This document shows, in pieces, positions 3,161-45,809 of a stretch of DNA of 64,000 nucleotides. Source of the DNA: Nitrospirota bacterium (GTDB lineage Bacteria > Nitrospirota > Thermodesulfovibrionia > Thermodesulfovibrionales > JdFR-88). Location: contig JAKAKS010000009.1 of assembly GCA_021813405.1 (NCBI GenBank), positions 26,390-90,389 on the forward strand. The letters run 5' to 3'. Made by a program: the position numbers and the translations under genes. How positions within the stretch are numbered: the stretch's first letter is position 1; every line of letters starts with the position of its first letter. The notes under the pieces were generated by a model. The model was not told the origin of the DNA, searched no databases, and saw nothing but the letters and a program-made list of their open reading frames with translations.

Positions 3161-3874
3161 TTATTCCTGCCTTATCCTCAGGATTAATAAAAGGACGCTT
3201 CCCGCCACAAACAGGAAGCCCCCCTTTAATGCCCAGGGAGCGCCAGGCTCCCTGCTTACCTCTATCAGGGCCATCGGGCCGGGTTTAAAGCTGACGTCCT
3301 CCAGGTAAAAACCGAAACCGTTAAAGAAAACCGGCCTGTTGGGGGCCATATAGCCCTCTTTAACAATTGTACCGTCCTTTAGAAAGCTGAGCCAGGCCTT
3401 CCAGCCTATGGTGGTCCCGCCGGGGGATTTTTCGGACTTGAATTTCGTAAATTCCACCGAAACATTCTTGCCAGCAAACGGGGCCGCCGCCTGCTGGCCG
3501 TAAGCCAGGTAACCTTCCATCCTGTAACCCCATATCGAGCTGACCAGGTGGGCAATGATTATAAAAATAAACCCAAGATGTATTATCTGCGGGGCAAGCG
3601 CAAGCATTATCCCCTGCTTTTTTTTAAGGGACTCTATGCTGCATGCAACGGTGGATACGGCAAGCAGCGCAGCAAGCCCTACCGAGCCCCAAAGCCAGAA
3701 GGACAGAGAAATGGGTGCGTTAATCATCCATTTTAAAAGCGCCCCGAAGGTCAAATCCCCGTAAGCCGGGACGATGGTCATATCGATAGAGCCGTACAGA
3801 AAAAGTGCGGCTATGGCGGCCATGAGTATCAGTGCCGTCTTCATGGAGGCAAATATGTTCCAGAGTTTTTTCAT
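3161..3874 (-). CDS. short ResB/Ccs1-like cytochrome c biogenesis membrane protein
   Basis: The 237-aa ORF has the ResB-type N-terminal TM (FASMKTALILMAAIAALFLYGS). Its C-terminal block NRPVFFNGFGFY...EPGAPWALKGGFLFVAGSVLLLIL parallels the 519-aa ResB at 19118. It directly follows a CcsA-like gene. Confidence 0.6.
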   Translation of the reverse strand: MKKLWNIFASMKTALILMAAIAALFLYGSIDMTIVPAYGDLTFGALLKWMINAPISLSFWLWGSVGLAALLAVSTVACSIESLKKKQGIMLALAPQIIHLGFIFIIIAHLVSSIWGYRMEGYLAYGQQAAAPFAGKNVSVEFTKFKSEKSPGGTTIGWKAWLSFLKDGTIVKEGYMAPNRPVFFNGFGFYLEDVSFKPGPMALIEVSREPGAPWALKGGFLFVAGSVLLLILRIRQE

Positions 3875-3887
3875 TTAACAGTTTTAC

Positions 3888-4595
3888 TTAAAAAGAATGC
3901 GAGCTTTTCATCAAAAGCCCCACCCCAACATAAGTGAAAAGCACTATCACAAAGCCGATGGCCCCCGTCCATACGGCCTTCCTGCCGTACCAGAACGGCC
4001 TGAAGCGGGCGTGCAGATAAAAGCCGTAATAAAGCCACAGGATAGATGTCCACAGCTCTTTAGGGGTCCACAGCCAGTAAGTGGCCCACGCATAATAGGC
4101 CCATATGCCGCCGATTATCATTGAAACGCTGAACAGCACGTATCCAAACAGGATGGCCTTGTACTGCCTTTTTTCAATTACCGGATCGGGCTGTGCCAGA
4201 TACAAAACCCCAAGAAATGCGCCTATGCCAAAAAGCGCATAAGAAAAAAAGGAGAGGGCTACGTGGAATTCAAAATAATAGGTGCTAAGCACGGCAGGAA
4301 GCGGGCCTTCATGCGGGGGCGAGAAAACGGCCGCAAATGTGATGGCAATGGCCGTGCCTGCCAGCATCAACCTGAACAATCTTTTTTCCGAAAGCAGCTT
4401 GTAAAAGGGTACTGAAAACGCGACGATGCTTGCGGTAAGGAAGATAAGAGTATCGTGCAGCCCAACAAGGGGCAGCCTGCCCAGATGAAACCCCCTGGAA
4501 AGCAGGTCCGCGGATTGGGCGGCAAGCCCCGCATAAAGGGCGGGCCACCACCAGAGCCCGATCACATAAAAAAACACGGATGCCGATTCCAGCAT
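3888..4595 (-). CDS. CcsA/ResC-like cytochrome c assembly protein (divergent Trp-rich motif)
   Basis: The 235-aa polytopic ORF carries the Trp-rich segment GGIWAYYAWATYWLWTPKELWTSILWLYYGFYLHAR. The canonical form is WGxxWxWDPKE...YLHAR, so here Asp is replaced by Thr. Confidence 0.7.
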   Translation of the reverse strand: MLESASVFFYVIGLWWWPALYAGLAAQSADLLSRGFHLGRLPLVGLHDTLIFLTASIVAFSVPFYKLLSEKRLFRLMLAGTAIAITFAAVFSPPHEGPLPAVLSTYYFEFHVALSFFSYALFGIGAFLGVLYLAQPDPVIEKRQYKAILFGYVLFSVSMIIGGIWAYYAWATYWLWTPKELWTSILWLYYGFYLHARFRPFWYGRKAVWTGAIGFVIVLFTYVGVGLLMKSSHSF

Positions 4596-8146: not shown

Positions 8147-8290
8147 CGTCCGGAGGCATCACCAGAGCCGGTAATCGACACTGCAAGCCTCCCTGGGATG
8201 CAAGGTCTTTTGGCAAGGCCTGACCCCATGGCCCTTTTTTACCAAAGGAAGCGGCAGCCCCATCGCAAAAAAACCTGGCTTTTTTGTTTG

Positions 8291-8319
8291 TTGCCCTGGC
8301 CAACACCATCCTGTATACT
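8291..8319 (+). promoter_or_regulatory. putative sigma-70 promoter for the beta-propeller/cupredoxin pair
   Basis: TTGCCC lies at 8291-8296, followed by a 17-nt spacer and TATACT at 8314-8319. This sits 44 nt upstream of the ATG at 8363. Confidence 0.35.
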
Positions 8320-8362
8320 TTTTTTAAAACCGGCGCAACAAAGAAGGGGTGTAAAGAACACC

Positions 8363-9328
8363 ATGAAAAAACTCATCGCTTTTTCGTGTCTCCTGGCCGT
8401 GCTTGCGTCTCCGGCCCTGGCCCGCGCCGCTTCGTCCGCGGCGGATTTTCCGGGGCCTGTTTATGTACCCCTCCAGGCCGCAAATGCGGTGGAGGTTTTT
8501 CCGCAGAAACGCATGTTTCACAATTTGACGTCTGCCCATTATGCAGGCGTCAGCCCGGATGGCAAGATGCTGATCACAGGCAGTTTCACGACCGGCAACG
8601 TGTTTCTGGTGGACACTAAATCCGGGCAAATCCTGGCGACTTTCAAAATAGGTAAGACCGTACAGGGCGTTGTATTCACCCCTGATGGCCGCCGGGCAAT
8701 GGCTGTGGAGCCCAACAAGGGCACCGTCACCGTGATCGACGTCAAAAAAAGAAAGGTGATCAAAACAGTCCCCGTCGGAAACATTCCGCACAACATCGGG
8801 TTCTCACCTGACGGCCATTTGGCCTATGTTACCCTGCAAGGGGGCACCGGTGTTGCGGTTGTAGATATGAAGACCCTGCGGAAGCTAAGGGAGGTCCCCG
8901 TTCCGGGGTTGACCGGGCCGCACAATCTGGATTTTTCCGCAGATGGGTCCGTGATGTGGGTGCGCGATATCGTGGGACACGTCGCGGCAATTGACCTTAA
9001 AACAGGCAAGGAGCTTGCATTGATCCCCGTTGGCCGCGGACATGCCGGGATCGACGTTGCGCCGGGCGGAAAATATGTCCTTACCGGCGCCATAGCCGAT
9101 GATATTGTGGACTTGATAGACCCGAAAACATTCAAAGTAATAAAAAGCATCGTGGTAGGGAAGGGACCACACGGAGTGCGCTCCAGCCGCGATGGCCGCT
9201 GGGCATATACGGATGTAACTGGAAGCAACGAACTTGTGGTGATAGATATGAAGACACTCAAGATAGCACGGAAAATACCGACCGCCGGAGGCAATCCGTT
9301 CTGGGTGGCCATATCTGGCCATCCCTGA
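8363..9328 (+). CDS. secreted YVTN-family beta-propeller repeat protein
   Basis: The tracked ORF starts at 8198. I place the start at the ATG at 8363, which follows AAGAAGGGG and gives the signal peptide MKKLIAFSCLLAVLASPALARA. It contains repeated units of about 40 aa such as PHNIGFSPDGHLAYVT...VAVVDMKT and GVVFTPDGRRAMAVEPNKGTVTVIDVKK. Confidence 0.8.
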   Translation: MKKLIAFSCLLAVLASPALARAASSAADFPGPVYVPLQAANAVEVFPQKRMFHNLTSAHYAGVSPDGKMLITGSFTTGNVFLVDTKSGQILATFKIGKTVQGVVFTPDGRRAMAVEPNKGTVTVIDVKKRKVIKTVPVGNIPHNIGFSPDGHLAYVTLQGGTGVAVVDMKTLRKLREVPVPGLTGPHNLDFSADGSVMWVRDIVGHVAAIDLKTGKELALIPVGRGHAGIDVAPGGKYVLTGAIADDIVDLIDPKTFKVIKSIVVGKGPHGVRSSRDGRWAYTDVTGSNELVVIDMKTLKIARKIPTAGGNPFWVAISGHP

Positions 9329-9342
9329 TCTCTGGCCGCCAG

Positions 9343-9783
9343 ATGAACAAGCGTAAAAAGGACCGTTCAAAAAAAGAAACACCATTTCATCACCTGGGCA
9401 GGCCGGGCTGGCCTTCAATGCTCCTGGCCTTTACTTTCGCCCTCATGGTGTCCCTGCTTGCGGGCGCAAGCGCCCGCGCGGCGGATTTTACCGTGATGCT
9501 CACTGACCGGCTGACATTCGCGCCCCGCACCGTCACCATACACACCGGGGATGAGGTGGTTTGGAAGAACACATCGTCCGCAGTCCACACCGTAACCTGC
9601 GACCCCAGGCTTGCCGCTTCTCCGAATGACGCCTCATTGCCGCCGGCAGCAAAGCCGTTTAATTCTGGATTCCTCAGGTCGGGCGCGGTTTACCGGCATC
9701 GATTCACCGTGCCGGGCACTTATCATTACTTCTGCCTGCTGCACGAGTCCTCCGGCATGACGGGGACCGTCGTTGTAAAATGA
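9343..9783 (+). CDS. secreted cupredoxin (plastocyanin/azurin-family blue copper protein)
   Basis: The type-1 Cu ligand pattern is present: AVHTV...YHYFCLLHESSGM (H...CxxHxxxxM). It has the signal-like segment MLLAFTFALMVSLLAGASARA. The start could be 9343 or 9418. Confidence 0.8.
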   Translation: MNKRKKDRSKKETPFHHLGRPGWPSMLLAFTFALMVSLLAGASARAADFTVMLTDRLTFAPRTVTIHTGDEVVWKNTSSAVHTVTCDPRLAASPNDASLPPAAKPFNSGFLRSGAVYRHRFTVPGTYHYFCLLHESSGMTGTVVVK

Positions 9784-9870
9784 TCTTTAGCTGATGCAGC
9801 CAGGTTAGCGGAGCGAAACCCGGCGCTTCCTGAAAAATTATCAGGAGCATCTAACACCGGAAGGCCCCCT

Positions 9871-9940
9871 CAAAAACCATGACATAAACTTCATGACATA
9901 TGTCATGTAGACTGTGTCATGGTTTGTCATGTTATGATGG
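9871..9940 (+). repeat. ATGACAT-rich palindromic repeat, copy P1
   Basis: The sequence is caaaaaccATGACATaaacttcATGACATATGTCATgtagactgtgTCATggtttGTCATgttatgatgg. It contains the perfect 16-bp palindrome CATGACATATGTCATG. It aligns by eye with the reverse complement of 61326-61377. Confidence 0.7.
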
Positions 9941-10086
9941 CTTTGTAATGGTGCGGAACCAGCCCCGGCTTTCAGCCACCCCGAGAGAGGGGATTCCCCC
10001 GGTGTTCTTTGAAAAGAGACGAAAATGGCGGGATTGTTCGTCCTGGCGGGTCTAGGTACGCGATGGCGGCATTCCCGCACAGTCGC

Positions 10087-10227
10087 TGTATTGCCGGCCT
10101 GCGGCAGTATGGCAACCTTAAAAACAGTGGGTTAAAAAGGCAAGATTGAACGGGTTGAACAGGAAATTAGCAAAAAAGCTTTAAAAACAGCGGCTTGCAA
10201 CTATTCATTTGAACACATAAAAAAAGG
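10087..10227 (+). repeat. TTGAAC-rich intergenic repeat, copy L1
   Basis: The string TGTATTGCCGG...ATTGAACGGGTTGAACAGGAAATTAGCAAAAAA...TTGCAACTATTCATTTGAACACATAAAAAAAGG aligns by eye with 34908-35052 at roughly 65-70% identity. Confidence 0.55.
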
Positions 10228-10242
10228 CCTGTTTAAGCGGGG

Positions 10243-11364
10243 CTAAATCTCTTTTTCGTAAATCCTGTAACGCCTGTAAGGGGTGCCGCCGCAGATTTCG
10301 GACAGCTTGATTACCGGGAGGTTGTCTTCCAGTATCCAGGAGAACTCCAGCTTCTTGTACTTGTCCCCGGATTTCCTAATCCCCTCCACGCCTTTTTTCA
10401 TCAGAAGGGATTCGATGCCCTTTCCTCTCCATCCGTCTTTTACACCAAGGAGCATCAGCCGGAGGGCGTCTATCTTCCTGAACCTGTGTATGGCCTTTAT
10501 GATCCTGATTGGGGTCAGTTTGGCTTTCAATTCTACCAGGGCCTGGTTCAAGTCCGGCACAAGCCCCAGGAACCCAACAGGCTCCCCATCCGGGGCCTCC
10601 ACTATGGCGGTAAGCTCTTCCACCAGAACGCCCTTCAGCCTTTTGGCCATGTCGTCCACTTCTTCCGGGGTGATCGGGAGAAACCCCCAGTTGTCCTTCC
10701 AGGCGGAGTTGTAGACATCCCGGAAGATGGCAAGCTCATCGCGCAGTTTTTTCAGGTTTATATTGCGCGTTTTGAACCCGCGTTTTTCCGCCATGGCGGC
10801 CACGCGGAACATCTTCTCCGGCGGGTGCACGCCCGCAATGAAGGCAAGCAGGTCTTTTGCCTTCTGCATCCCGTATTTTTCCATCAGGCTGTTGTAGTAG
10901 GCGGGGTTATAGGGCATCATTATCATCGGCGCGCCAGGTTCACCGCCCTCCAGCAGGAACCCGCACTCCTCGTTGGTTGAAAAGTTCATGGGCCCGCGCA
11001 TCCGCTGCATGCCGGCCTTTTTAAGCTCCAGGGCGGCCGTGTCCAGCAGTTTTTTTGCCGTGGCCTGATCGTTTTCGCACTCGAAAAATCCGAAGAACCC
11101 GGCCCCGTCGGCGTGCGCCTCGTTATGCCTTCTGTTTACTATCGAGGCGATCCGGCCGGTTATCCTTCCATCCTGCCGGGCAAGGAAGTATTTCACTTCC
11201 GCGTCTTTAAAGAAAGGGTTTTTCTCCGGGAAGAACATTTTTTTCTGCTCGAAGATGGGCATGGGGCAGTAATTCGGGTCCTCCTGGTAAAGCCCCAGGG
11301 GGAACTTTATAAATGAAAGGACTTCCTTTGGCGACCTTGCCTCTGAAACCGCAACTGAGGCCAC
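10243..11364 (-). CDS. GNAT-fold N-acyltransferase-like protein (373 aa)
   Basis: The ORF has a GTG start sharing one nucleotide with the upstream stop codon (TAGTG). The N-terminal half contains LYQEDPNYCPMPIFEQKK...FFGFFECENDQ...MRGPMNFSTNEECGFLLEG. The C-terminal half has a GNAT-type CoA-binding loop, GWRGKGIESLL. Confidence 0.6.
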   Translation of the reverse strand: MASVAVSEARSPKEVLSFIKFPLGLYQEDPNYCPMPIFEQKKMFFPEKNPFFKDAEVKYFLARQDGRITGRIASIVNRRHNEAHADGAGFFGFFECENDQATAKKLLDTAALELKKAGMQRMRGPMNFSTNEECGFLLEGGEPGAPMIMMPYNPAYYNSLMEKYGMQKAKDLLAFIAGVHPPEKMFRVAAMAEKRGFKTRNINLKKLRDELAIFRDVYNSAWKDNWGFLPITPEEVDDMAKRLKGVLVEELTAIVEAPDGEPVGFLGLVPDLNQALVELKAKLTPIRIIKAIHRFRKIDALRLMLLGVKDGWRGKGIESLLMKKGVEGIRKSGDKYKKLEFSWILEDNLPVIKLSEICGGTPYRRYRIYEKEI

Positions 11365-12587
11365 TATATAAGCCCTAGCGCCTTGCCCACCTTGTCAAAG
11401 GCCTGAAGCACTGCGTCCAGATGCTCGTCCGTGTGGGTCGCCATATAGCTGGTCCTTAAAAGCGCCTTGCCTTCAGGCACTGCCGGGCTTACCGCCACAT
11501 TGGCAAACACGCCTTCCTGCTGGAGCATCATCGCCGCCTTGAAGGCAGTCTCGCTTTCACCCACCATAACCGGCACTATTGGGGTTTCCGTGGGGCCTAT
11601 TTCAAACCCCATCGCCTTGAACCCGCTTATCATCTTCACCGTATTGGCCCGCAGCCGTTCAAGCCTCTCCGGTTCGTTTTCAATTATATCCAGGGCCGCG
11701 CTTACGGCCGCAACCGAAGCCGGGGGCGGGCTTGCGCTGAATATCAGGGAGCGGGCGAAATGCTTTATGTAATGGATTACGTCGGAAGGCCCGGCAATAA
11801 AGCCGCCTATCGAAGCCAGGCTCTTGGAATAAGTGCCCATGATGAGGTCCACATCCTGTTCCAGCCCAAAGTGCTCGGCCGTGCCCCTGCCAGTTTTGCC
11901 CAGCACGCCTATACCGTGCGCGTCATCCACCATAAGCCTGGCGCCGTGTTTATGGGCTAAGGAGAGGATATCCGGGAGTTTCGCTATGTCGCCTTCCATG
12001 CTGAAAACGCCGTCCACTACCACCAGGGCGGCCTTGCCTCTGTTTCTGTTAAGCACCCGTTCCAGGTCCGCCATATCGTTGTGCCGGAATTTGCAGACCT
12101 CCGAGTACGAGAGCCTGCAACCGTCTATTATGCTTGCGTGGTCCATTTTATCAATAACCACAATGTCGTTTTTGCCGGACAGGGCCGATATCACGCCAAG
12201 GTTAACCTGGAAGCCGGTTGAAAAAACCAGCGCGGCCTCTTTCCTCATGAAGCGGGCCAGCTTTTCTTCCAGCTCAACGTGAATATCCAGCGTGCCGTTT
12301 AGAAAACGGGAGCCCGCGCAACCAGAGCCGTATTTCCTGACGGCCTCGATGGCGGCCTCTTTTACCTTTGGGTGATTGGTAAGCCCCAGGTAATTGTTGG
12401 AGCCTACCATTATCATGGGCTTGCCATTTATATATACAACCGGGTCCTGCGCGCTTTCGATGGTCCTGAAATAAGGGTAAAGGCCAACGTGCATCAGTTC
12501 GCGCGCCCTGGTGAAGCTTTTACATTTATCGAAAAGGTCCTGCCGCTCTATAGCCATTGATGAGTCCTGTACCAATCCGCTGTCCAC
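11364..12587 (-). CDS. alpha-oxoamine synthase, serine palmitoyltransferase / KBL / BioF family (Spt-like)
   Basis: The 407-aa ORF carries [44 protein letters not shown] and DDAHG, plus the PLP lysine in [12 protein letters not shown]. The alternative start at 12557 would overlap the upstream stop by 10 nt. Confidence 0.85.
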
Positions 12588-13516
12588 TTTATCCCTTCCT
12601 TTAAGGTGGTCTTTGCGGCAAAGCCGAAATCACGGCCCGCTTTGCCTGTGTCACAGCACCAGTGTGAATAAGCCAGTTCCCTGGCCTTGTCCCTGTTTAC
12701 GATGCCTGTACCAGGCATGAGCCCCGATATGCCCGCTATAACCGGCACCAGGGCTGAAGGCAGCCGCAGTTTTAACGGCGGACGCCTCTTTCCAAGGGCC
12801 TCCGATATGGCGGCCGCTATCTCGCTTCCTTTGTGGCACGGGCCATCGGAAAGATTATAAATCTTCCCCGCTGAGGTCTGGCTTGTTGCCGCCTGGATAA
12901 TCCCGGCCACCAGGTCCTCCACAAAAACAAGCGAATAACTGCTTTCTCCCCAGTACGGGTAAACGCCTTTTGCAACCATCCTGAACAGGACCAGAAAGTC
13001 CCTGTCGCCGGGGCCGTATACCGCCGGGGGGCGAACTATTACCGTTGGAATGGATTTTGCGAACTCCTCCACGGCCTTTTCGCCCAGAAGCTTGCTCCTG
13101 CCGTAATCGGAAACAGGGGCAGGCTCCTCATCTTCGCGCCTCAGGCTGCCATCCGGTGAAGGCCCCGAAGCAGACAGGCTGCTTACGTAAACAAACATCC
13201 GGCAGCCCGGGTTATTTTCAGCCGTTGCCTCCAGGAGGTTCCTGGTGCCCTCCGCGTTTGCCCTGTAAAAATCCCCCGCCTTTTTGGCCTTGGTGACGCC
13301 CGCCAGATGAAATATATAATCTGCGCCGCGCACCGCCTCCCGCAAAGTTTCCTTGCGGGTGCAGTCCCCCTGGATTACCGATGCCGCCAGTCCTGCTAGT
13401 CTGCCGGAGACAGTGGGCCTCCTGACCAGGCATTTTACGGAAAACCCCTCGCTGGCCAGCCGGGCGGCCAAGTGGCCGCCAATGAACCCAGTGGCCCCGG
13501 TTACGAAGGCGTTCAT
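12548..13516 (-). CDS. NAD(P)-dependent epimerase/dehydratase-family SDR reductase
   Basis: The 322-aa ORF has the Rossmann motif [12 protein letters not shown] and the catalytic YGRSK (YxxxK). It is the first gene of the three-gene overlapping operon. Confidence 0.85.
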
Positions 13517-13533
13517 GGGTGATTATTATACTA

Positions 13534-13746
13534 GAACCTGTCTCAAAATTGCTTCCGGCTGCAAGAGGTGTCCCCGAAAAGCTGTAGCTTTTGGGGGCAG
13601 AAGAGGCTGAAATCGCGGCAACTGTGGGGATCAGGAAAAACCGTCCGAAACGTAGCGCAGCTATGCCCCCGGGCGGTTTCCCATCTTCTCCTTGTCTGCC
13701 ATAATTTCTTCTCTCTTTCGCTTCAGAACCAATTTTGGACAGATTC
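13534..13746 (+). repeat. TIR hairpin (MITE/REP-like) intergenic element, copy A (213 bp)
   Basis: The ends GAACCTGTCTCAAAATTG and CAATTTTGGACAGATTC form an 18-bp terminal inverted repeat with 2 mismatches. The interior aligns with copy B at 34665-34842, apart from a 38-bp insertion at 13569-13606. Confidence 0.8.
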
Positions 13747-13819
13747 ATCGAGAACAACATACTGGAAACCGGATGATAAATAATGGGGAAGGCCCCTTTT
13801 CATCCGGTCCAGTAATAGC

Positions 13820-14650
13820 TTACATCTGCTCCAGCCTGCGGATCCGGTCCTCAATGGGTGGATGAGTGCTGAAAAGCTTTAAAATGGCGCTGCCTGAAAG
13901 CGGGTTGACAATAAACATGTGGGCCGTGGCCTCTGTTGCCTGCATGGGTATGGCCTTGGAGCCGTACTCCAGTTTCCGGAGGGCGCTTGCAAGATAGCGC
14001 GGATTCCCGGCTATTCGGGCACCGCCCTCGTCGGCTGAATATTCCCTGGCACGCGAGACGGCCATCTGTATGATAATGGCAATCAGGGGAGCAATTATCA
14101 TGAGCAAAAGACTGGCCAGCGGGCTGCTGCCCCGTCTGTCTCTCCTGCCGCCAAAGAACATCTCAAGCTGGGCAATCTGGGCCAGGTAGCTAATGGCCCC
14201 CGCTATAGTGGCTGCAATGGTGCTTATAAGGATGTCCCTGTGCTTCACATGCGCAAGCTCGTGCCCAAGAACGCCGGAAAGCTCCTCCGGTGTAAGAAGC
14301 CGCATTATACCCTCGGTTACGGCAACTGCCGCGTGGTTTGGGTTCCTGCCTGTGGCAAATGCATTTGGCTGCTCCTGGGGTATGATGAATACCTTTGGCA
14401 TCGGTAGTTCGGCCTTCGAGGCAAGCCTCCGCACTATTGAATACAATTCCGGCGCTTCGGCCTCTGTGACCTGCCGGGCGTTGTACATCTTCAGCACCAT
14501 CTTATCGCTGAACCAGTAGGCAAAAATATTCATCGCAAAAGCAAAGATAAGAGCGAACTTCATACCCTGGTCTCCACCCAGAGCCCGCCCGGCCCAGACA
14601 AAAAACAGGGTGAGCAGTGTAAGCAGGACGCCGGTTTTAAAACCGTTCAC
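13820..14650 (-). CDS. htpX: M48-family zinc protease HtpX
   Basis: The 276-aa ORF has N-terminal TM helices, the [10 protein letters not shown] (HExxH) motif and the [10 protein letters not shown] tail typical of HtpX. Confidence 0.9.
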
Positions 14651-14719
14651 GTATAAGCACCTCCTTATGAATCTTATTAATAATAATACAACTAAATTGT
14701 GTTTGAGATTTGAAGTTGC

Positions 14720-15097
14720 TCAGGCGATGCCGGAAACGGCTGAAACGGCGTTTTCAAGCTCTTCCAGCTTGAACGGCTTCCGGAGGACCCCTATGCCGCC
14801 GTTTTTGTAATCTTCGGCCATCTCGGAGGTGATATAGGCGGAACAGACAATTATCCGGGGGCGCTTCTGTTCGGGGATTTCACCCACTTTTGATATGAGA
14901 GTTGAGCCATTTTCCCCAGGCATCCGGAGGTCAGTGAGCATCAGGTCGAACCCCCCGCTATCCAGCGTGATAATGGCTTCAGCCCCGCTTGAAACGGCTT
15001 TTACGCTGTGCCCAAGCCTTGTTAGAGCCCTTTCCAGGAACCATCTGACTAATTGTTCATCATCTACGACAAGTATTTTCACGCGATTCCCCTGCAT
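14720..15097 (-). CDS. single-domain response regulator (CheY-like receiver)
   Basis: The 125-aa ORF has VVDDE and LTDLRMPG (the phospho-acceptor Asp), and no output domain. Confidence 0.85.
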   Translation of the reverse strand: MQGNRVKILVVDDEQLVRWFLERALTRLGHSVKAVSSGAEAIITLDSGGFDLMLTDLRMPGENGSTLISKVGEIPEQKRPRIIVCSAYITSEMAEDYKNGGIGVLRKPFKLEELENAVSAVSGIA

Positions 15098-15171
15098 ATT
15101 GTAAGCAAAAACCGGGCTAGAAGAAGTAGGTTTAAGCCGGGAAATAAAATTTGATATTTGCGGAAGCCACT

Positions 15172-16566
15172 TCAGACGTCTTTTTCGGGTAAAAACCCGA
15201 ATTTCTGCATCCTGTACCGGAGCGTGTCCCTGGAAAGGTTAAGGAGCCTGGATGCCTTGGACTGGTTGCCCTTGGTTGAATCCAGGGCCTGTCTTATAAG
15301 CTCCTTTTCTACCTCCTCGATATCGATGCCGGAGGATGGAAGCCTTATATCCATCGGCTTGGCGCCTACTGAATAGGCCGTTGCAGCCCCGGAGGATACT
15401 TCCATCGGAAGGTGCTCGGGCAATATATAGACCTCGTTTTCCAGTATCATGGCCCGCTCTATAACGTTTTTGATCTCTCTTACGTTACCTGGCCAGTGGT
15501 ATTCAAGGAAGAGCTTTTCTGTTTCGCTTGCCAGTCCTTTTGTGGATTTTCTGAATTCCCTGTTGAACAGATCTATGAAGAATCTGGCAAGGTGCAGGAT
15601 GTCTTCCTCCCGGTCCCTCAGAGGCGGCAGATATACCGGGATTACCTTCAGCCTGTAGTAAAGGTCCTCCCGGAAATTGCCGTTTCTGACCTCTTCATCA
15701 AGGTTTTTGTTGGTGGCGGCTATTACCCGTAGGTCCACATCGATATCCTTTATGCCGCCTACCCGCTTGAAACTCTTGTTCTCGATCACTTTTAGGAGTT
15801 TGGCCTGGGTGGACAGTTTCATGTCCCCGATTTCATCCAGGTATATGGTCCCTGAATCCGCCAGCTCGAACATGCCCTTTTTCATGGTTTTGGCATCCGT
15901 GAAAGCGAATTTTTCATAGCCGAAAAGTTCGCTTTCTATGAGTGTCTCCGGCAGGGCCGTGCAGTTTATCTCTACAAACGGCTTGTCCTTCCGCGCGCTC
16001 TGGTAATGGATTACCTTGGCAACTAAATCCTTGCCGGTGCCGCTTTCTCCCTGCAGCATTACCGTGCTGGCATCGCTTTTGGCCACCTTTTGTATAAGAT
16101 CTAACACCTTCTTCATGGGTTGCGAACTGCCTATCAGGCTGGCCGGCGCGTATTTGGAGTTAAGCTGGCTTCTGAAATTGGAGACCTCTTTTCGTAACGA
16201 GGATGTTTCCAGGGCCTTGTCCAGAATTATCTTTAGCTTGTCCATATTGAAGGGCTTTTCCACGAAATCATAGGCCCCAAGCTTGATTGTCTTGACAGCC
16301 GTCTGGACGTCACCGAACGCCGTTATCATGATTACAATGGCGTCCTTGTTTATCTCCTTGATGCCTTCAAGCACGGTTATGCCGGAGATGTCGGGCAGGT
16401 GTATGTCCAGAAGGGTAATATCCGGGGGGTCCTCCCGGAACTGGCTAAGCCCGTCCAGCCCTTTTTCGGCAGTGGACACCGTGTAGCCGTCCTTGGAAAG
16501 GTTCTGGTCGAGGGACCACCGGAGGAGTTTTTCGTCATCTATTACTAAGACTTTAGCCTTGGCCAT
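15172..16566 (-). CDS. sigma-54-dependent Fis-family response regulator (NtrC class)
   Basis: The 464-aa ORF combines a receiver domain (VIDDE, LLDIHLPD), an AAA+ domain (GESGTGKD, ESELFGYEKFAFTDA, RVIAATN, REDLYYRL) and a C-terminal Fis HTH (ASRLLNLSRDTLRYRMQKFG). Confidence 0.9.
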   Translation of the reverse strand: MAKAKVLVIDDEKLLRWSLDQNLSKDGYTVSTAEKGLDGLSQFREDPPDITLLDIHLPDISGITVLEGIKEINKDAIVIMITAFGDVQTAVKTIKLGAYDFVEKPFNMDKLKIILDKALETSSLRKEVSNFRSQLNSKYAPASLIGSSQPMKKVLDLIQKVAKSDASTVMLQGESGTGKDLVAKVIHYQSARKDKPFVEINCTALPETLIESELFGYEKFAFTDAKTMKKGMFELADSGTIYLDEIGDMKLSTQAKLLKVIENKSFKRVGGIKDIDVDLRVIAATNKNLDEEVRNGNFREDLYYRLKVIPVYLPPLRDREEDILHLARFFIDLFNREFRKSTKGLASETEKLFLEYHWPGNVREIKNVIERAMILENEVYILPEHLPMEVSSGAATAYSVGAKPMDIRLPSSGIDIEEVEKELIRQALDSTKGNQSKASRLLNLSRDTLRYRMQKFGFLPEKDV

Positions 16567-17965
16567 CTGAAGCTACTTTAACCCTGAGTGGTAGTATAAC
16601 ATGAAAAGTGCTCCCAAGGCCCGGCTGACTCTCCGCGCTGATGTAGCCGCCGTGCTTTTCGACTATGCCCTTGCTTATGGCAAGCCCCAGCCCCGTGCCG
16701 GAGCGTTTGGTGGTGAAAAAAGGTTTGAATATGCTCTCCACGGCCTCAGGCGGTATGCCGGCCCCGGTGTCGCTGATAGTGATTTCTATGTTTTTATCTT
16801 CGCCAGGATAGACATTAACGGTAAGCATTCCGCCGCTAGGCATGGAATGAAGCGCGTTCAGCATGACGTTAAGAAATACCTGCTGCATCTGTTCCGGATC
16901 CACTTCAACAGGCTGCACCTCAGGGTTTTCGTACGGCATTATTATGCTGACCCCCTGGGACTCGGCCTGTTTGGCAACCAGCTTCCTGGCCCTCTCTATT
17001 ACCGGGATTATATCGGTCTTTATGGTTATCAGGGCCGGCGGGTTTGCGAAATTGAGCAGGTTTTTTATGGACTGGTCCAGCCGGTCTATCTCGCTTAGTA
17101 TCTCTTTTATTATCTCCCGTCTGGGGTCGTTTTCCTTTATGTCCTCAACAAAAACCTGTATTGCCCCGCTGATGCCTGCAAGCGGATTTTTTATCTCATG
17201 CGCTATCGCGGCGGCCAGCTCGCCCAGGGAGGCCATCTTTTCCATGCGCTTCATGGTGTCCGTGTAGCAGGCCTCCAGCTTCTCCCGCATCTGCCCCATC
17301 TGGCCCATTACCTTGTTTAAGTCGGAGGATATCTCCCCGATCTCGCTTACGGCCGGCTTGAACATTATATTTTTTTCTCCCCGGAGGGCCTTTTTCAGAT
17401 TTCCGGAGATGTCTTTGAGCGGAGTGGCGATGACCTTTGAGTTTATGCACCAGATAGGGCCGAATATGGCCAGAAAGTTAAGGAGGAACTTAAGGCCGGT
17501 ATAAAGCCTCATCTCTTTTATTTTTGCGTGGGTGCGCTTGTCTGCAAGCTCCACGTTTAACACCGAGATTATCTGTCCGTCAGCGCTGTGGCACCTCTGG
17601 CAGGGCCTTTCGTTGTAAATGGGCATGAACACCTCATAAGGGATACCATCGGGGTCCTTGAAGGTGCTGGCTTTAAGGGGAAGGTTCTTGATCCTCAAGT
17701 TGTTCTCCCCGTCCAGCGTGGAAGATACCACCATGCCTCCGGGGCTTATGAGCCGCATGCTCTTTAAGTCCCCGGTGGTTACGTCGGATATAAACTCTCC
17801 GAAGTCCTTCCCCTTGCCTTCAAGCATGAGGGTGACAAGCCCGTTTTTGACTACCTCCGTGGCAACGGAGAGCCTGCGGGCGTTTTCTTCGGCCAGTTGC
17901 TTTTTATTCTCTACGTAGGCACGGAAATGGAACGCGCCCAGCACTATGCAAAGCAGCCCTGCCAT
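16553..17965 (-). CDS. sensor histidine kinase with a CXXCH-containing extracytoplasmic domain
   Basis: The 470-aa ORF has two TM segments flanking a roughly 150-aa domain that carries PCQRCH (nt 17588-17602). It has the HisKA motif IAHEIKNPLAGI and an HATPase domain (DTGAGI, GTGLGLAI). It overlaps the downstream regulator gene by 14 nt. Confidence 0.85.
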   Translation of the reverse strand: MAGLLCIVLGAFHFRAYVENKKQLAEENARRLSVATEVVKNGLVTLMLEGKGKDFGEFISDVTTGDLKSMRLISPGGMVVSSTLDGENNLRIKNLPLKASTFKDPDGIPYEVFMPIYNERPCQRCHSADGQIISVLNVELADKRTHAKIKEMRLYTGLKFLLNFLAIFGPIWCINSKVIATPLKDISGNLKKALRGEKNIMFKPAVSEIGEISSDLNKVMGQMGQMREKLEACYTDTMKRMEKMASLGELAAAIAHEIKNPLAGISGAIQVFVEDIKENDPRREIIKEILSEIDRLDQSIKNLLNFANPPALITIKTDIIPVIERARKLVAKQAESQGVSIIMPYENPEVQPVEVDPEQMQQVFLNVMLNALHSMPSGGMLTVNVYPGEDKNIEITISDTGAGIPPEAVESIFKPFFTTKRSGTGLGLAISKGIVEKHGGYISAESQPGLGSTFHVILPLRVKVASDGQG

Positions 17966-18009: not shown

Positions 18010-19113
18010 TTATTGCCCGTTCCCGTAGGAGTGCAGTCCGCTCAGGAGCAGGTTAACAACCAGATAAGTGCATATCACGGATACAAAACCCATGACCGAA
18101 ACTACCGCAATCTTGTGCCCCCTCCATCCTCTTAAAAGGCGGGCGTGGAGGTAGAAGGCGTATACAAGCCAGGTGATGAGCGACCAGACTTCCTTGGGGT
18201 CCCAGCTCCAGTAAACGCCCCAGGCCTGGTCTGCCCAGATGGCCCCGAATATGAGCCCGCCCAGGGTAAAAATCGGGAACCCTATCGCTATGCCTTTGTA
18301 GGTTATTTCATCCAGGGTAGCGGCTGACATCCCGAACCCCTCTATTACTTTTTTGAGCCCGGCCCCAAAGTACCATACCCCTGTTATCACAAGCCCGGCC
18401 AGCAAAACGCTGAATGCCTGCACCGCGCCGGAATCGCTCCTGAATGTGCTCCTGAATAGATAGCTTTTTACGAAGTTCTCCGAGGTAAGCCCCAGCTCCT
18501 TGTACCTGAACCAGTCAATCCCCATGGCGGCAAGCACGGTTATTATTATGCCCAGCCCTACTGTCCAGAATACGTAAGCCGGCTCGTTTTTATGCGTGGA
18601 GACTATAAGGTACATAAGCCCGGTGCTGAACGAGAGCGCGAACATGGAGTAGGATATGAAGCTCAAGGTCACATGCGCCAGCAGCCAGTTGCTCTGCAGG
18701 GCCGGCACCAGCGGCTCTATTTCCTTGAAGCCCGGGTTGGAAGCCCCTGATATCTCTATGAAGAGCAGTGCCAGGGCGGCTATCGGGGTTACGAACGCAC
18801 CAAAAGAACGGTTCTGGTATCTGCGTTCTATTATTAAATATCCAAGCATCAGGCACCAGACAAAAAATATAAGCGATTCATAAAGATTGGTAATCGGCAG
18901 CGCCCTTAAAAGCGAACTGCCCGCTCCCATGACCTGGTGGAGCTGCACGCCCCTGAGGATTATCGCGATGGTCTGGCAGGCAAAACCAATCGTGGCAACG
19001 GTTGTGGCTGTTACTCCAATACCCTTTTTCTTAAAGGCAATGTACGTTATATATATGGCCATAGCTACCATATACGCTATTGTGGAAATGCCAAAAAATT
19101 GTGAGCTGTTCAT
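18010..19113 (-). CDS. ccsA: cytochrome c-type biogenesis protein CcsA/ResC (system II)
   Basis: The 367-aa polytopic ORF has the canonical Trp-rich motif WADQAWGVYWSWDPKEVWSLITWLVYAFYLHARLLRGWRG. Confidence 0.9.
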   Translation of the reverse strand: MNSSQFFGISTIAYMVAMAIYITYIAFKKKGIGVTATTVATIGFACQTIAIILRGVQLHQVMGAGSSLLRALPITNLYESLIFFVWCLMLGYLIIERRYQNRSFGAFVTPIAALALLFIEISGASNPGFKEIEPLVPALQSNWLLAHVTLSFISYSMFALSFSTGLMYLIVSTHKNEPAYVFWTVGLGIIITVLAAMGIDWFRYKELGLTSENFVKSYLFRSTFRSDSGAVQAFSVLLAGLVITGVWYFGAGLKKVIEGFGMSAATLDEITYKGIAIGFPIFTLGGLIFGAIWADQAWGVYWSWDPKEVWSLITWLVYAFYLHARLLRGWRGHKIAVVSVMGFVSVICTYLVVNLLLSGLHSYGNGQ

Positions 19114-19117
19114 CCGG

Positions 19118-20677
19118 TTATTTACCTCCTTCGGCCAGATGAGCCTTTAATTTCTCAATCTGCCTTTCAAAGGCATATCTGTTTTTATTTGCGGAAGCGG
19201 CGATTATGGCCTTTGCGCCTCCTTTTTCGTTCACAATCCTAACCCAAATCCGCCTGTGGCTCATGAAGAATGCCACGAAAAGTCCTAGCCCAAGCATAAG
19301 ACAGCCAAGATATACTATCCATACCCCCGGGTCCCTGCGTACCTGAAGCCCGGTGTACTGCACGCCCCAGAACTCCTTCAGTTTAAGGATGCTGCCGTCG
19401 CCCAGGCTCCAGGTCTGAGGATATCTTTTCAATATCCATTTATAGGCTTTGGTGTCTCCGGAGTTTATCTGCACCTCTACAGCCGGGTTGTTCATCATAT
19501 GGGCATAAGCGTAAGGCCTGCCCGATTCATCAAATGCCAGGGCAGGGTTAAAATCCACCAGCTTTACCGTGGCCCCGGTGCCTGGCATTTTTATTGACTC
19601 ACCGATCTTGAGCCGCATGGTTTCCGAAGCACCGCCGGGCCCCTTGGCATCCAGTATCGCAACCCCGTTATTAAAATTATCAAGCTGACCATAGCTGGAC
19701 TGGTAAACGGTCACCCCTTTGTACTTTAGCGGCTTGTTTACCTCTATCTGTTTGGTGAGCACCTCTTTCCCGTCATCTATTACCGTGAGTTTGCTCTTAT
19801 AAGCCTTTGGCTGGTCCGTATCGCCATAAAAATCAACATTAAAATTATCGCAGCGAAGGGCGAACCCAAGCGGGTAAATGCCCAGTGATTTCATTATGCC
19901 GGCAAGCTGGCTCTGGCTTACGTTCAGGGCGCTGGCAAGCTGGGGCAGGTTTGAGTTGGTAGCTTCCAGCAGGTCCATCAGCCTTTGCTGGGCGTCGGCT
20001 TGTGCCTGGGAGCCCATCTGCTGGTCCCTGTATGCAACGGTGGCGGTTTCGCCCTCCGGAAGACTGAGCACCCCTTTGAAACCAAACCACTTCCCGGCAA
20101 CGGCGCCTACCATGATAACGATTATGCTTACATGTGTAATGTATACGCCAAGACGGCTCCATGCGTGCTTTTGGGTATATATCTGCACCTCATCGCCGGA
20201 TGAATGTTCATGCGGGACGAACCCGATTTTTTTAAATGCTTCGCGGGCCACGTCTGCAGGCTGGCCTTTCCCGGCAAACTTTACCTCGGCCTTTATCTGG
20301 GCGCCTCTGAAAGCTTCCGGGGGCATTGGGGCGGCCGGGGCCTTCACAATCTTCCATATACCAGGAAACCTGTCTATGGAGCACACCAGCAGGTTGGCCG
20401 CAAAGAGCGCTAATAATGAGAGGAACCACCAGGAGCGGTACATATTCATAAAGTCCATCGCGTTCAGTATCCTGTACATCATGGGGGCTGCGTTGATGCC
20501 AACCAGGTGCGACAGTACCCTCATGTTTACTTCCGGCGCGGCATTCTGCTCAAGGATCGTTCCCACTATTGATGTAAGGGCGATCAGCGAGAAAACTACA
20601 ATGGCAAGCTTTATTGATGAAAAAAAAGACCAGACCTTGTCGGAAAAGGTTTCTTTCTTGCTTTCCCGTTCTTCCAA
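19118..20677 (-). CDS. resB: cytochrome c biogenesis protein ResB/Ccs1/CcsB (system II)
   Basis: The 519-aa ORF has a TTG start after AAAGGAG. It carries FFSSIKLAIVVFSLIALTSIVGTILEQ, a large soluble central domain and a C-terminal DPGVWIVYLGCLMLGLGLFVAFF segment. It sits 4 nt upstream of ccsA. Confidence 0.9.
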   Translation of the reverse strand: MEERESKKETFSDKVWSFFSSIKLAIVVFSLIALTSIVGTILEQNAAPEVNMRVLSHLVGINAAPMMYRILNAMDFMNMYRSWWFLSLLALFAANLLVCSIDRFPGIWKIVKAPAAPMPPEAFRGAQIKAEVKFAGKGQPADVAREAFKKIGFVPHEHSSGDEVQIYTQKHAWSRLGVYITHVSIIVIMVGAVAGKWFGFKGVLSLPEGETATVAYRDQQMGSQAQADAQQRLMDLLEATNSNLPQLASALNVSQSQLAGIMKSLGIYPLGFALRCDNFNVDFYGDTDQPKAYKSKLTVIDDGKEVLTKQIEVNKPLKYKGVTVYQSSYGQLDNFNNGVAILDAKGPGGASETMRLKIGESIKMPGTGATVKLVDFNPALAFDESGRPYAYAHMMNNPAVEVQINSGDTKAYKWILKRYPQTWSLGDGSILKLKEFWGVQYTGLQVRRDPGVWIVYLGCLMLGLGLFVAFFMSHRRIWVRIVNEKGGAKAIIAASANKNRYAFERQIEKLKAHLAEGGK

Positions 20678-30802: not shown

Positions 30803-31333
30803 TTGCCAACCATAGGCATAGGCGGTGCGGGCAGCGGGGTTGGCAAAACTTTATTTGCCGGGATGCTTCTTGGGCAATTGCCCGGCTGGGGCGCGCTTAA
30901 GTACACAAGGACCGCTCTTTACACCTCCGTTACTGAAGACGAAGCGGTGCTCAAGGCCCCCGGGAAGGACACGGCAAGGCTTTTGACCTCGGGCGCGTCA
31001 AAGGTGGTCTGGGTGCAAAGCCCCGGCGGGCAGGAGCTTGAAGAGGCCCTTTCGGCCGCCATGGGGGCATTGGCTGGGTTGCCGGGTGTAGTGATTGAGG
31101 GAAACAGTGCCGTTGAGGTTTTAAAACCCGATATTGTAATATTTATTGGTGGTACAGAGGTCAAAAAAAGCGCACATCGCGTGCTTGATATGGCCAGGAT
31201 TGTGTATTACCCCAATGGCGCTGGGGCGCCTGAGGCCGGAGGCGCCGGTAACCGGAATGCAAATGCCTTTTACAGCGTTGACGGCCAGAAATGCCTTAAG
31301 GAGGTCCTTGATATCCTGAATGGGCGCACTTAG
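30803..31333 (+). CDS. MobB-like P-loop protein
   Basis: The 176-aa ORF has a TTG start, the Walker A motif GAGSGVGKT, and GKDTARLLTSGASKVVWV, which resembles the MobB GKDS.R...GA block. The assignment is tentative. Confidence 0.45.
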   Translation: MPTIGIGGAGSGVGKTLFAGMLLGQLPGWGALKYTRTALYTSVTEDEAVLKAPGKDTARLLTSGASKVVWVQSPGGQELEEALSAAMGALAGLPGVVIEGNSAVEVLKPDIVIFIGGTEVKKSAHRVLDMARIVYYPNGAGAPEAGGAGNRNANAFYSVDGQKCLKEVLDILNGRT

Positions 31334-32132
31334 TTTTCAGATAGCGCTTTTTTTCTACCTTCTGGCGATGCTGGCGGCGTTTTTCGACCTGTTCAAAAGC
31401 ACCAGGATACTGCCCAAGGCCGCTTACATGTTCGTCATTGTGGGCTTCCTCTTCCACACCACAAACGTTGTATACAGCTGGTTTGCAGACGGCCATATAC
31501 CCATCGTAAACGCGCATGAGGCCACAAGCTTCTTTGCGTGGTGCGTGTTCCTGCTTTTCCTGCTGCTGGAATACAGCTACAAGCTTGGGCTGCTGGGCTC
31601 ATTCATAATACCCATAGGGTTTGCGCTTACGCTGGTTTCATCGGTGCTGTCCTCCGCATCCAAGCCGCTTACCCCGCAGCTCAGGAGCTACTGGCTTGGC
31701 ATACACACATTTTTTGCCTTCATGTCCAGCGCCGCATTTGCCTTAGCGGCCGGGCTGGCGTTTATGTATCTTGTGCAGGAGCATCACCTGAAGCGCAAAC
31801 GGCTTGGCGGCCTTTTTGAAAGGCTCCCAAGCCTTCAAAGGCTGGACGAGATAAGCTACAGGCTGATAACCATGGGGTTCCCTCTTTTTACGCTGGCGAT
31901 AATAAGCGGCTCCATCTGGGCGGACAACGCCTGGGGCAGCTATCTGAGCTGGGAGCCTATACAGGTGTGGTCCATAATCACCTGGCTTATATTTGCGGTG
32001 GTCTTCCATTCCAGACTGCTTGCCGGCTGGAGGGGCAGAAGGGCCGCCGTGCTTTCGATAATCGGCTTTGCCACAATAATAATCGCCTTTGCGGGACTGG
32101 CGCTTTTGCAGAAAGGACAGCATATTTTCTGA
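31320..32132 (+). CDS. CcsA-related membrane protein (HemX-like) upstream of hemA
   Basis: The 270-aa ORF has 8 TM segments and a degenerate Trp-rich motif, WADNAWGSYLSWEPIQVWSIITWLIFAVVFHSRLLAGWRGRRAA. Its stop overlaps the hemA ATG (TGATG). Confidence 0.75.
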   Translation: MGALSFQIALFFYLLAMLAAFFDLFKSTRILPKAAYMFVIVGFLFHTTNVVYSWFADGHIPIVNAHEATSFFAWCVFLLFLLLEYSYKLGLLGSFIIPIGFALTLVSSVLSSASKPLTPQLRSYWLGIHTFFAFMSSAAFALAAGLAFMYLVQEHHLKRKRLGGLFERLPSLQRLDEISYRLITMGFPLFTLAIISGSIWADNAWGSYLSWEPIQVWSIITWLIFAVVFHSRLLAGWRGRRAAVLSIIGFATIIIAFAGLALLQKGQHIF

Positions 32133-45119: not shown

Positions 45120-45809
45120 CTAATTTCTGAAGAGGGTGATCGCCACCCCCTTGTTGTGCCTTATGCATTGTTTTACCGATTCCACATCCTTTTCACAGTT
45201 CAGCAGGGTCTTCCAGGAGTATAAGTGCCTTGGCTTGTGAAAATCGCTGTTTGCTATGTAGTGGTATTTTTTCAGACTGATGACGTTGAATACATCATCC
45301 CTGTTTGCGATCTCCCAGGCGTCTATGTGCCTTGCGTATTTGTCCCTGTTGTTCCACAGGTACAAGGTGTCTCTGGAATTGTCCGAAAGATGATGCGGGT
45401 GGCACGCAACCGTGATGGCATCCTGTCTTTTAGCTTCCAGGAATATTTTTTCGTAACTCATGCAGGCCGGGATGAATTCTTTTACGTCCAGCACCAGTAT
45501 ATGGGCAGACATGTCAATGGAGATATGGTTTTTGCTTATCTCGACACCGGGAATAACAAGCATCCCGTACTTGTCCCAGGCCCGTCGTGCCTGCTGCTGC
45601 ACGGCTGCCATGTATTCATCAAAGTTGTCCCCCCTTACGGAAAATCTGAATCTTTGGGCAAGTTTTCCTAACAGGTTGTCCCCGTTTACAACGTGGTCCG
45701 TTATTGCGATAACATCAAAGCCGGCCTGTCCGTAAAGGTCTATGACTCTTCCCAATTCCACTGACCCGTCTGAATATGTAGTGTGGATATGGAAGTCGCA
45801 TAACAACAT
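45120..45809 (-). CDS. PHP-domain metal-dependent phosphoesterase
   Basis: The 229-aa ORF has CDFHIHTTYSDGS, AITDH, PGVE and ACHPHH, which form the PHP His/Asp ladder. Confidence 0.8.
   Translation of the reverse strand: MLLCDFHIHTTYSDGSVELGRVIDLYGQAGFDVIAITDHVVNGDNLLGKLAQRFRFSVRGDNFDEYMAAVQQQARRAWDKYGMLVIPGVEISKNHISIDMSAHILVLDVKEFIPACMSYEKIFLEAKRQDAITVACHPHHLSDNSRDTLYLWNNRDKYARHIDAWEIANRDDVFNVISLKKYHYIANSDFHKPRHLYSWKTLLNCEKDVESVKQCIRHNKGVAITLFRN

Follow-up and report, generated by a model that had tools for sequence, protein, structure and literature searches.

The accepted bacterial pathway to ceramide consists of a serine palmitoyltransferase (Spt or SPT), a ceramide synthase (bCerS) and a ceramide reductase (CerR), whose genes are often clustered (PMC11087976; PMC11334938). 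The reaction of Spt is followed by N-acylation by a GNAT enzyme and reduction of the 3-ketone by a short-chain dehydrogenase/reductase (SDR) (PMC11087976). An operon of this composition, encoding an SDR, an alpha-oxoamine synthase (AOS) and a GNAT-like protein, is described here from a Nitrospirota bacterium (Thermodesulfovibrionales, JdFR-88; GenBank assembly GCA_021813405.1). It lies in a 64,000-nt stretch of contig JAKAKS010000009.1 (positions 26,390 to 90,389, forward strand), which is called the window and in whose coordinates its genes are given. Homology, fold, active-site conservation and gene linkage, from which the substrates, product and co-translation are inferred, indicate with a probability of about 0.78 that the three genes form a compact operon for the (dihydro)ceramide backbone of bacterial sphingolipids. 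On the same grounds (homology, the GNAT fold, the AOS active site and conserved linkage) the proposal of the initial annotation, that the trio fits the bacterial ceramide enzyme set, is supported. The genes and their junctions are as follows.

12548-13516, minus strand: SDR (CerR-like candidate), 322 aa, ATG start (open reading frame list and sequence)
11364-12587, minus strand: AOS (Spt-like candidate), 407 aa from GTG 12587 or 397 aa from ATG 12557
10243-11364, minus strand: YghO-family tandem-GNAT protein (bCerS-like candidate), 373 aa, GTG start
12548-12587, minus strand: SDR/AOS overlap in two reading frames, 10 or 40 nt
11362-11366, minus strand: TAGTG junction of the AOS stop and GNAT start, base 11364 common to both

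The pathway genes of Caulobacter crescentus are CC_1162/CCNA_01220 (Spt), CC_1154/CCNA_01212 (bCerS) and CC_1164/CCNA_01222 (CerR). As in the window, an AOS, a YghO-type GNAT and an epimerase-type SDR are clustered, with the same proposed chemistry. Caulobacter differs in needing a dedicated acyl carrier protein (ACP; AcpR) and an acyl-ACP synthetase (AasR), both absent from the window operon, and in having its bCerS gene several genes away, whereas the three window genes overlap. The closest characterised enzyme to the AOS is the SPT of Sphingobacterium multivorum (PDB 3A2B, 8GUH), which has a nearly identical active site, is of the soluble homodimer type and uses palmitoyl-CoA directly. The window Spt candidate is of the S. 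multivorum type (55% identity); with the SPTs of Sphingomonas and E. coli its identity is 40%, and it is not of the alpha-proteobacterial type. In Bacteroidota, spt, bCerS and CerR are unclustered (PMC11334938), in contrast to the single overlapping operon of the window.

The yghO cluster of E. coli B and enterotoxigenic E. coli (ECD_02850-02854; locus L004) gives full-length matches to all three proteins (YghO 31%, SPT 42%, epimerase 27%), and its SPT is biochemically active (Padilla-Gomez et al., PMC9386255). In the E. coli record yghO stands beside acyl-AMP ligase, epimerase/dehydratase, ACP and AOS genes; unlike the window operon, this cluster has five genes with an ACP and an acyl-AMP ligase, a divergent yghO and flanking LptF/LptG paralogues. 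These form a second LptF/LptG pair (L004 1343-3489), and no such pair lies near the Nitrospirota operon. A 2026 preprint, to judge by its title, ties lipopolysaccharide-transport homologues to sphingolipid export in Caulobacter, which fits the E. coli LptF/LptG flank.

The plasmid of Streptomyces sp. NBC_01001 (locus L005) carries an operon of the same families with overlapping genes, which has the highest identities among annotated records (AOS 48%, GNAT 36%, SDR 44%). Its order is AOS-GNAT-SDR followed by a condensation-domain gene, as opposed to SDR-AOS-GNAT in the window, and it is uncharacterised. In the sulfonolipid (capnine) pathway (cysteate-C-fatty acyltransferase CapB/SulA plus a reductase), too, an AOS acts first, the ketone is then reduced and a long-chain amino alcohol is N-acylated, but its cysteate enzymes score 264 and 248 bits to the window AOS against 451 for the S. 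multivorum SPT.

Potential sphingolipid producers have been reported from nine phyla (Stankeviciute et al. 2022, as cited by later work) and from 40 phyla (PMC11334938). Genetic potential for ceramide has been stated for Thermodesulfovibrio, a Nitrospirota genus, and monoglycosyl ceramides correlate with amplicon sequence variants of Thermodesulfovibrionia (PMC10667739). The operon is therefore an ordinary further example of a published pathway: its enzymes, their clustering and their wide spread were already known and Thermodesulfovibrio had been named, so that the picture of the pathway is unchanged. What it adds to the growing number of bacteria with sphingolipid-synthesis genes is an uncultured lineage of Nitrospirota, whose Spt/bCerS/CerR operon is well supported, compact and ACP-independent. 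The operon helps to trace environmental ceramides, for example in anoxic and subsurface settings, to their source organisms, and the tight three-gene unit would be convenient for heterologous expression.

Gene organization

The open reading frame list and the sequence bear out three overlapping genes on the minus strand, as first annotated. The SDR stop TAG (12550-12548) lies within the AOS gene, giving an overlap of 40 nt if the AOS starts at GTG 12587 and of 10 nt if it starts at ATG 12557. The AOS stop TAG (11366-11364) and the GNAT start GTG (11364-11362) have base 11364 in common. The overlapping stops and starts suggest joint production of the three proteins from a single transcript, with translational coupling inferred from the overlaps.

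The order SDR-AOS-GNAT and the overlap of about 40 nt between SDR and AOS recur in 26 Nitrospirota loci, in which both candidate AOS starts are kept. Conservation cannot choose between them, as each coincides with a conserved Trp codon in the overlapping SDR frame (K-W and Q-W-L-stop). ATG 12557 (397 aa) is more probably the start than GTG 12587, since the upstream start is missing in one Nitrospirota locus (L037), independent gene calls on contigs with an identical AOS protein use the ATG (397 aa, 10-nt overlap), and the N-terminus of the S. multivorum SPT aligns just downstream of it. The GTG start of the GNAT gene agrees with the alignment of its family (A1) and is also used by independent gene calls on contigs encoding an identical protein.

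An Rfam scan of 9300-15200 gave sub-threshold chance matches only, promoter and terminator scans gave signals no higher than shuffled controls, and the T-run 3' of the GNAT stop had no significant hairpin (z = 0.55).

Alpha-oxoamine synthase

The Pfam match of the AOS (PF00155, E 3.7e-61) is to the generic aminotransferase fold only. The best of 28 NCBIfam models was serine palmitoyltransferase NF047600 with 571.4 bits, which leads the BioF/Kbl subfamily model (439 bits) by about 130 bits and the BioF (412) and KBL (411) models by about 160; the remaining non-Spt models compared scored 262 and 234 bits. Searches of the PDB gave the same ranking, the AOS being closer to Spt (451 bits) than to KBL, BioF, ALAS, CqsA and cysteate acyltransferase (343, 268-273, 264 and about 215-230 bits), and it is 55% identical to the crystallised S. 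multivorum SPT. The PDB matches were:

451 bits: S. multivorum SPT (best match)
343 bits: Thermus BioF/KBL enzyme
about 300 bits: Sphingomonas SPTs
268 bits: E. coli KBL
264 bits: cysteate-C-fatty acyltransferase
248 bits: KAPA-synthase-like enzyme 7u7h

A neighbour-joining tree was made from 11 sequences: the window AOS, two Nitrospirota orthologues, the N-terminal half of a fusion protein, the AOSs of the Streptomyces and E. coli clusters, E. coli KBL and BioF, and three PDB sequences. The window AOS joined the S. multivorum SPT with 92.5% bootstrap support, within a clade (100%) of AOSs that adjoin YghO-family genes, and the KBLs formed a separate group. Being small and distance-based, the tree supports this placement and does not prove it. 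Model scores, the PDB match and the tree together favour the Spt-like assignment proposed in the initial annotation, outside KBL and BioF.

The active site is well conserved. AOS residues H150, D221, H224 and K255 align with H138, D210, H213 and K244 of the S. multivorum SPT, which are the contacts and the lysine for pyridoxal phosphate (PLP), and nearly all the active-site residues of that enzyme listed in PMC10196870 are kept. The conserved residues of the serine site are N64, Y66, A91, G92, S93, F95, S196, T252 and S254. All the motifs first quoted for the AOS are found in its translation, SKS being present as GTYSKS; this motif contains Lys255 and differs from the SPT-characteristic GTFSKS by a conservative F to Y change. 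The equivalent of Met271 is Ile, as in all other SPT-type sequences aligned. Homology and active-site conservation support the AOS as a serine-palmitoyltransferase-like enzyme with predicted Spt substrates.

An AOS with these scores might be a housekeeping KBL or BioF, acting in threonine catabolism or biotin synthesis beside unrelated neighbours. The KBL and BioF models do score strongly (411-412 bits), as expected from the relatedness of all AOS enzymes, but both scores are under the models' own cutoffs and some 160 bits short of the Spt model. KBL and BioF diverge from SPT at several active-site positions and carry the PLP motifs GTLGKA and VTFGKG in place of GTYSKS; the KBLs form their own clade; no tdh or bio genes adjoin the window trio; and the linkage to GNAT and SDR genes is kept across phyla. 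A housekeeping role is excluded for practical purposes.

The same enzyme logic with another head amino acid (cysteate, alanine or glycine) is a more serious alternative, though still an unlikely one. The product would then be a sulfonolipid of the capnine or sulfobacin type, a 1-deoxyceramide or another N-acyl amino-alcohol lipid. Bacterial Spt enzymes take alanine and glycine at low efficiency (PMC10196870), 1-deoxyceramides are made from alanine by the same three enzymes (PMC11334938), and the AOS falls under the Spt equivalog cutoff. Against this stand the 451 bits to the S. multivorum SPT, compared with 264 for the cysteate-C-fatty acyltransferase and 248 for 7u7h, and the match of N64, A91, G92, S93, S254 and the PLP-phosphate environment to the serine enzyme. 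A cysteate synthase gene was not seen among the window genes scanned, and the sulfonolipid alternative is disfavoured.

GNAT-like protein

The 373-aa GNAT-like protein has only a weak Acetyltransf_1 match in Pfam (residues 246-359) and no match among NCBIfam models or PDB sequences. When annotated plasmid records were searched by tblastn, the protein matched over its full length E. coli YghO (31% identity, residues 4-373 against 8-380, E 4e-62), a protein of Streptomyces annotated 'GNAT family N-acetyltransferase' (36% identity, E 1e-77) and others. The AlphaFold2 model (pLDDT 93.6, pTM 0.90) matched tandem-GNAT proteins in Foldseek (7q3a, 2wpw, 5kf1 and MshD, E 2e-15); the fold matches include MAB_4324, the clavulanate-pathway tandem GNAT, a glucosamine N-acetyltransferase and mycothiol synthase. 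In the family alignment A1 residues G124, P125, N225, W226, P230, R302, G307 and N348 are invariant, and an R-G-K-G motif lies in the C-terminal half.

The link to ceramide synthesis runs through YghO. The Figure 9 legend of PMC9386255 lists YghO (ECD_02850) as the orthologue of Caulobacter CC_1154 (aca, bCerS), and in Table S2 of the same paper the two proteins are 44% identical (E 1e-107, 98% coverage). CC_1154 is needed for dihydroceramide synthesis (PMC9386255). The initial annotation had named membership in a family of unrelated demonstrated function as one of the points on which its proposal would fail; the protein proved to be a full-length member of the YghO family, with YghO as the CC_1154 orthologue. 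These data support the GNAT-like protein as a bCerS-like candidate of the YghO family, for which N-acylation of long-chain bases is predicted.

Short-chain dehydrogenase/reductase

The SDR matches PF01370 (E 3.7e-38) and is an extended SDR of the NAD-dependent epimerase/dehydratase family. Its translation has the Rossmann motif GATGFIGG at residues 7-14 and a YGRSK Tyr/Lys pair. It is 44% identical to the epimerase of the Streptomyces cluster (E 5e-65) and 27% identical to that of the E. coli cluster (residues 5-310 against 7-300 of 304, E 1e-33); the latter, ECD_02852, is equated with Caulobacter CC_1164 (epi, CerR) in the Figure 9 legend of PMC9386255. The SDR is supported as a CerR-like candidate for reduction of ceramide or 3-ketosphinganine. 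Caulobacter CerR was reported to be periplasmic (PMC11087976). The window SDR begins right at its Rossmann motif and has no room for a classical signal peptide.

The best NCBIfam match of the SDR is the hopanoid-associated HpnA, which was rejected as an assignment at 136 bits against a cutoff of 368.

Conserved gene linkage

A scan of 185,579 species genomes with the narrow alignment A2 returned 80 loci, 74 of them informative, with enough flanking sequence. Beyond Nitrospirota these come from Zixibacteria, Gemmatimonadota, Binatia, Ignavibacteria, Cytophagia, Eisenbacteria, Methylomirabilota, Cloacimonadota and others. The position of the AOS gene in the 80 loci was:

directly upstream of GNAT: 57 (57 of the 74 informative loci)
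near GNAT: 2
absent despite full flank: 15
flank too short: 6

Of the 59 loci that carry an AOS, 52 have a linked SDR gene; its positions over the 59 were:

upstream, same strand: 38
upstream, divergent: 7
downstream: 7
not seen: 7

AOS and GNAT also occur naturally as one fused protein (representative P0137, 780 aa), and the AOS, GNAT and epimerase genes overlap on the Streptomyces plasmid. Conserved linkage, the fusion and the Streptomyces operon place the three families in one pathway, independently of the Caulobacter work.

The AOS family includes autoinducer synthases (PRK07179 scores 234 bits), and a condensation-domain gene follows the Streptomyces trio on its large plasmid in a manner that resembles secondary metabolism. 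The trio might accordingly make a small diffusible or specialised metabolite, such as a CqsA-like alpha-amino- or alpha-hydroxy-ketone signal or an N-acylated aminoketone natural product. This is improbable: CqsA-type models reach 234 bits against 571 for Spt, and CqsA-type structures 138 against 451. The window trio is chromosomal, has a fixed housekeeping neighbourhood across Nitrospirota, unlike accessory biosynthetic clusters, and adjoins no further tailoring genes.

Some loci show variant arrangements. Genes for a SfiI-like restriction endonuclease and an N6/N4 DNA methyltransferase lie between AOS and GNAT in L002 (4288-5990) and L003 (2255-3957), in an otherwise syntenic Nitrospirota operon. 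In the Cloacimonadota locus L065 (3732-7262) three YghO-family paralogues stand in tandem, with no AOS beside them. P0121 (784 aa) is a fused tandem duplicate of the YghO family, and P0259 is a PilZ-YghO fusion, which hints at cyclic di-GMP control in some members. A gene identical to that in the window is present in GCA_027414835.1, and the nearest named protein comes from a 'Nitrospiraceae bacterium' metagenome-assembled genome. The trio is also carried by a metagenome-assembled genome labelled T. yellowstonii (L026).

Acyl donor

The initial annotation had noted that no ACP or acyl-CoA ligase gene is adjacent, and this is correct: the trio is flanked by genes for an M48/HtpX protease and a cupredoxin. 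Tblastn (E <= 1e-3) with the ACP and the acyl-AMP ligase of the E. coli sphingolipid cluster as queries found nothing in the 64-kb window; no homologue of either occurs in any of the 80 related loci; and the 459-nt gap downstream of GNAT has no ACP-like open reading frame. Acyl-CoA is the likely donor, given that AcpR and AasR are missing and that palmitoyl-CoA is used by the S. multivorum type of Spt, to which the window candidate belongs. Since a dedicated ACP and acyl-ACP synthetase are lacking, the operon is not the Rhodobacteria-type five-gene system (Spt, AcpR, AasR, epi and aca), and to judge from gene content it is most likely of the acyl-CoA type rather than the five-gene proteobacterial one.

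Proposed pathway

In the ceramide pathway proposed for the operon, the PLP-dependent Spt-like enzyme would condense L-serine with a long-chain acyl thioester, most likely acyl-CoA, to 3-ketosphinganine. The YghO-family tandem-GNAT protein would place a second acyl chain from acyl-CoA onto the amino group, and the extended, CerR-like SDR would use NAD(P)H to reduce the ketone at C3. Which of N-acylation and ketone reduction comes first is disputed even in Caulobacter.

Several points weigh against this assignment. The AOS is under all Spt equivalog cutoffs (NF047600, 571.4 of 640; NF047599, 426.7 of 500; NF047603, 340 of 670). Judging by their names, these models were built for the CFB group, Betaproteobacteria and Alphaproteobacteria, with none for Nitrospirota, and for that reason the shortfall limits automatic naming and is not a sign of another family. 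The SDR is likewise under every NCBIfam equivalog cutoff. The tie of the window GNAT and SDR to the characterised Caulobacter enzymes is indirect, by way of the E. coli orthologues and a published table. The three loci of the genome collection whose GNAT is closest to that of the window (L010, L011 and L012; 58-63%) have a stand-alone GNAT, with no AOS or SDR within 5 kb. The family is large, with 5747 matches in a word-indexed search and 6769 clusters at 50% identity (E <= 0.001), 1075 of them at E <= 1e-30. Its size and the absence of an adjacent AOS in 15 of 74 loci call for caution, and not every YghO-family member need be a ceramide synthase. In the literature on Nitrospirota sphingolipids no lipid analysis of an isolate was found.

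It is doubtful but conceivable that the Nitrospirota version, rather than a plain ceramide operon, is a sphingoid-lipid module specific to the lineage, with at least one unusual feature. The trio, which stands in a fixed block behind genes for a histidine kinase, a sigma-54 response regulator, a further response regulator and HtpX, may be tied to envelope-stress control. An unusual acyl chain could come from the dedicated convergent ketoacyl synthase with which the trio is paired in relatives. In the window genome, ceramide could be glycosylated by a GT21/HpnI-like transferase (43910-45112); if so, these anaerobes would be a source of the monoglycosyl ceramides seen in subsurface lipidomes.

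Neighbouring genes

The gene upstream of the SDR start, at a gap of 303 nt (16-100 nt in relatives), is:

13820-14650, minus strand: M48/HtpX-type membrane protease (Pfam PF01435, E 1.3e-39)

An HtpX homologue stands directly upstream of the SDR in L001, L002 and 15 further Nitrospirota loci. The protease is possibly co-regulated with the trio, to judge from its conserved position. In L001 and L002 the order is histidine kinase, sigma-54 response regulator, response regulator, HtpX, SDR, AOS, GNAT and a convergent ketoacyl synthase. Directly upstream of the trio in many Nitrospirota (window 13820-17965, minus strand; L001, L002 and loci of the series L013-L042) lie genes for a histidine kinase, a sigma-54 response regulator, a response regulator of a single domain and HtpX. 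This conserved block suggests a possible link to envelope stress.

The convergent ketoacyl-ACP synthase gene 3' of GNAT (L001 7101-8315; L002 7119-8294) is also present in L012-L015, L021, L022, L029, L030 and L041. No homologue of it occurs in the 64-kb window, where its position is occupied by a cupredoxin gene (9343-9783) and the gene of a cytochrome-d1-like beta-propeller (8198-9328). The convergent cupredoxin gene is the downstream flanking gene of GNAT, at a gap of 459 nt. At 9892-9945 in this gap a perfect 16-nt palindrome, CATGACATATGTCATG, has further ATGACA repeats on its flanks; it could be a protein-binding site. Upstream of GNAT in L010-L012 lie genes for a Methyltransf_28 protein, a TIM-barrel protein and an amino-acid permease, and a convergent GT4 glycosyltransferase gene lies downstream of it in L010.

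Other features of the window

A GT21-family glycosyltransferase is encoded at 43910-45112 on the minus strand (Pfam PF13506, E 2e-43). Its top NCBIfam match is HpnI, with 245 bits, under the cutoff of 310. GT21 is the family of ceramide glucosyltransferases, and the predicted enzyme could glycosylate ceramide, or a hopanoid. Tblastn showed no linkage of this glycosyltransferase to GNAT loci elsewhere. Genes for a PHP-domain hydrolase (45120-45809, minus strand) and a GH1 beta-glucosidase (45868-47106, minus strand) adjoin it.

An open reading frame of 1474 aa (35070-39494, plus strand) has PPDK/PEP-utiliser domains in its C-terminal third only, and its first approximately 1000 residues match no Pfam family. 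Pairs of ResB/CcsA-like cytochrome c biogenesis genes lie at 3161-4595 and 18010-20677, both on the minus strand, the second judged by eye from the translation. A Cytochrom_C_asm gene (31320-32132, plus strand) stands beside the haem-synthesis genes hemA and hemC.

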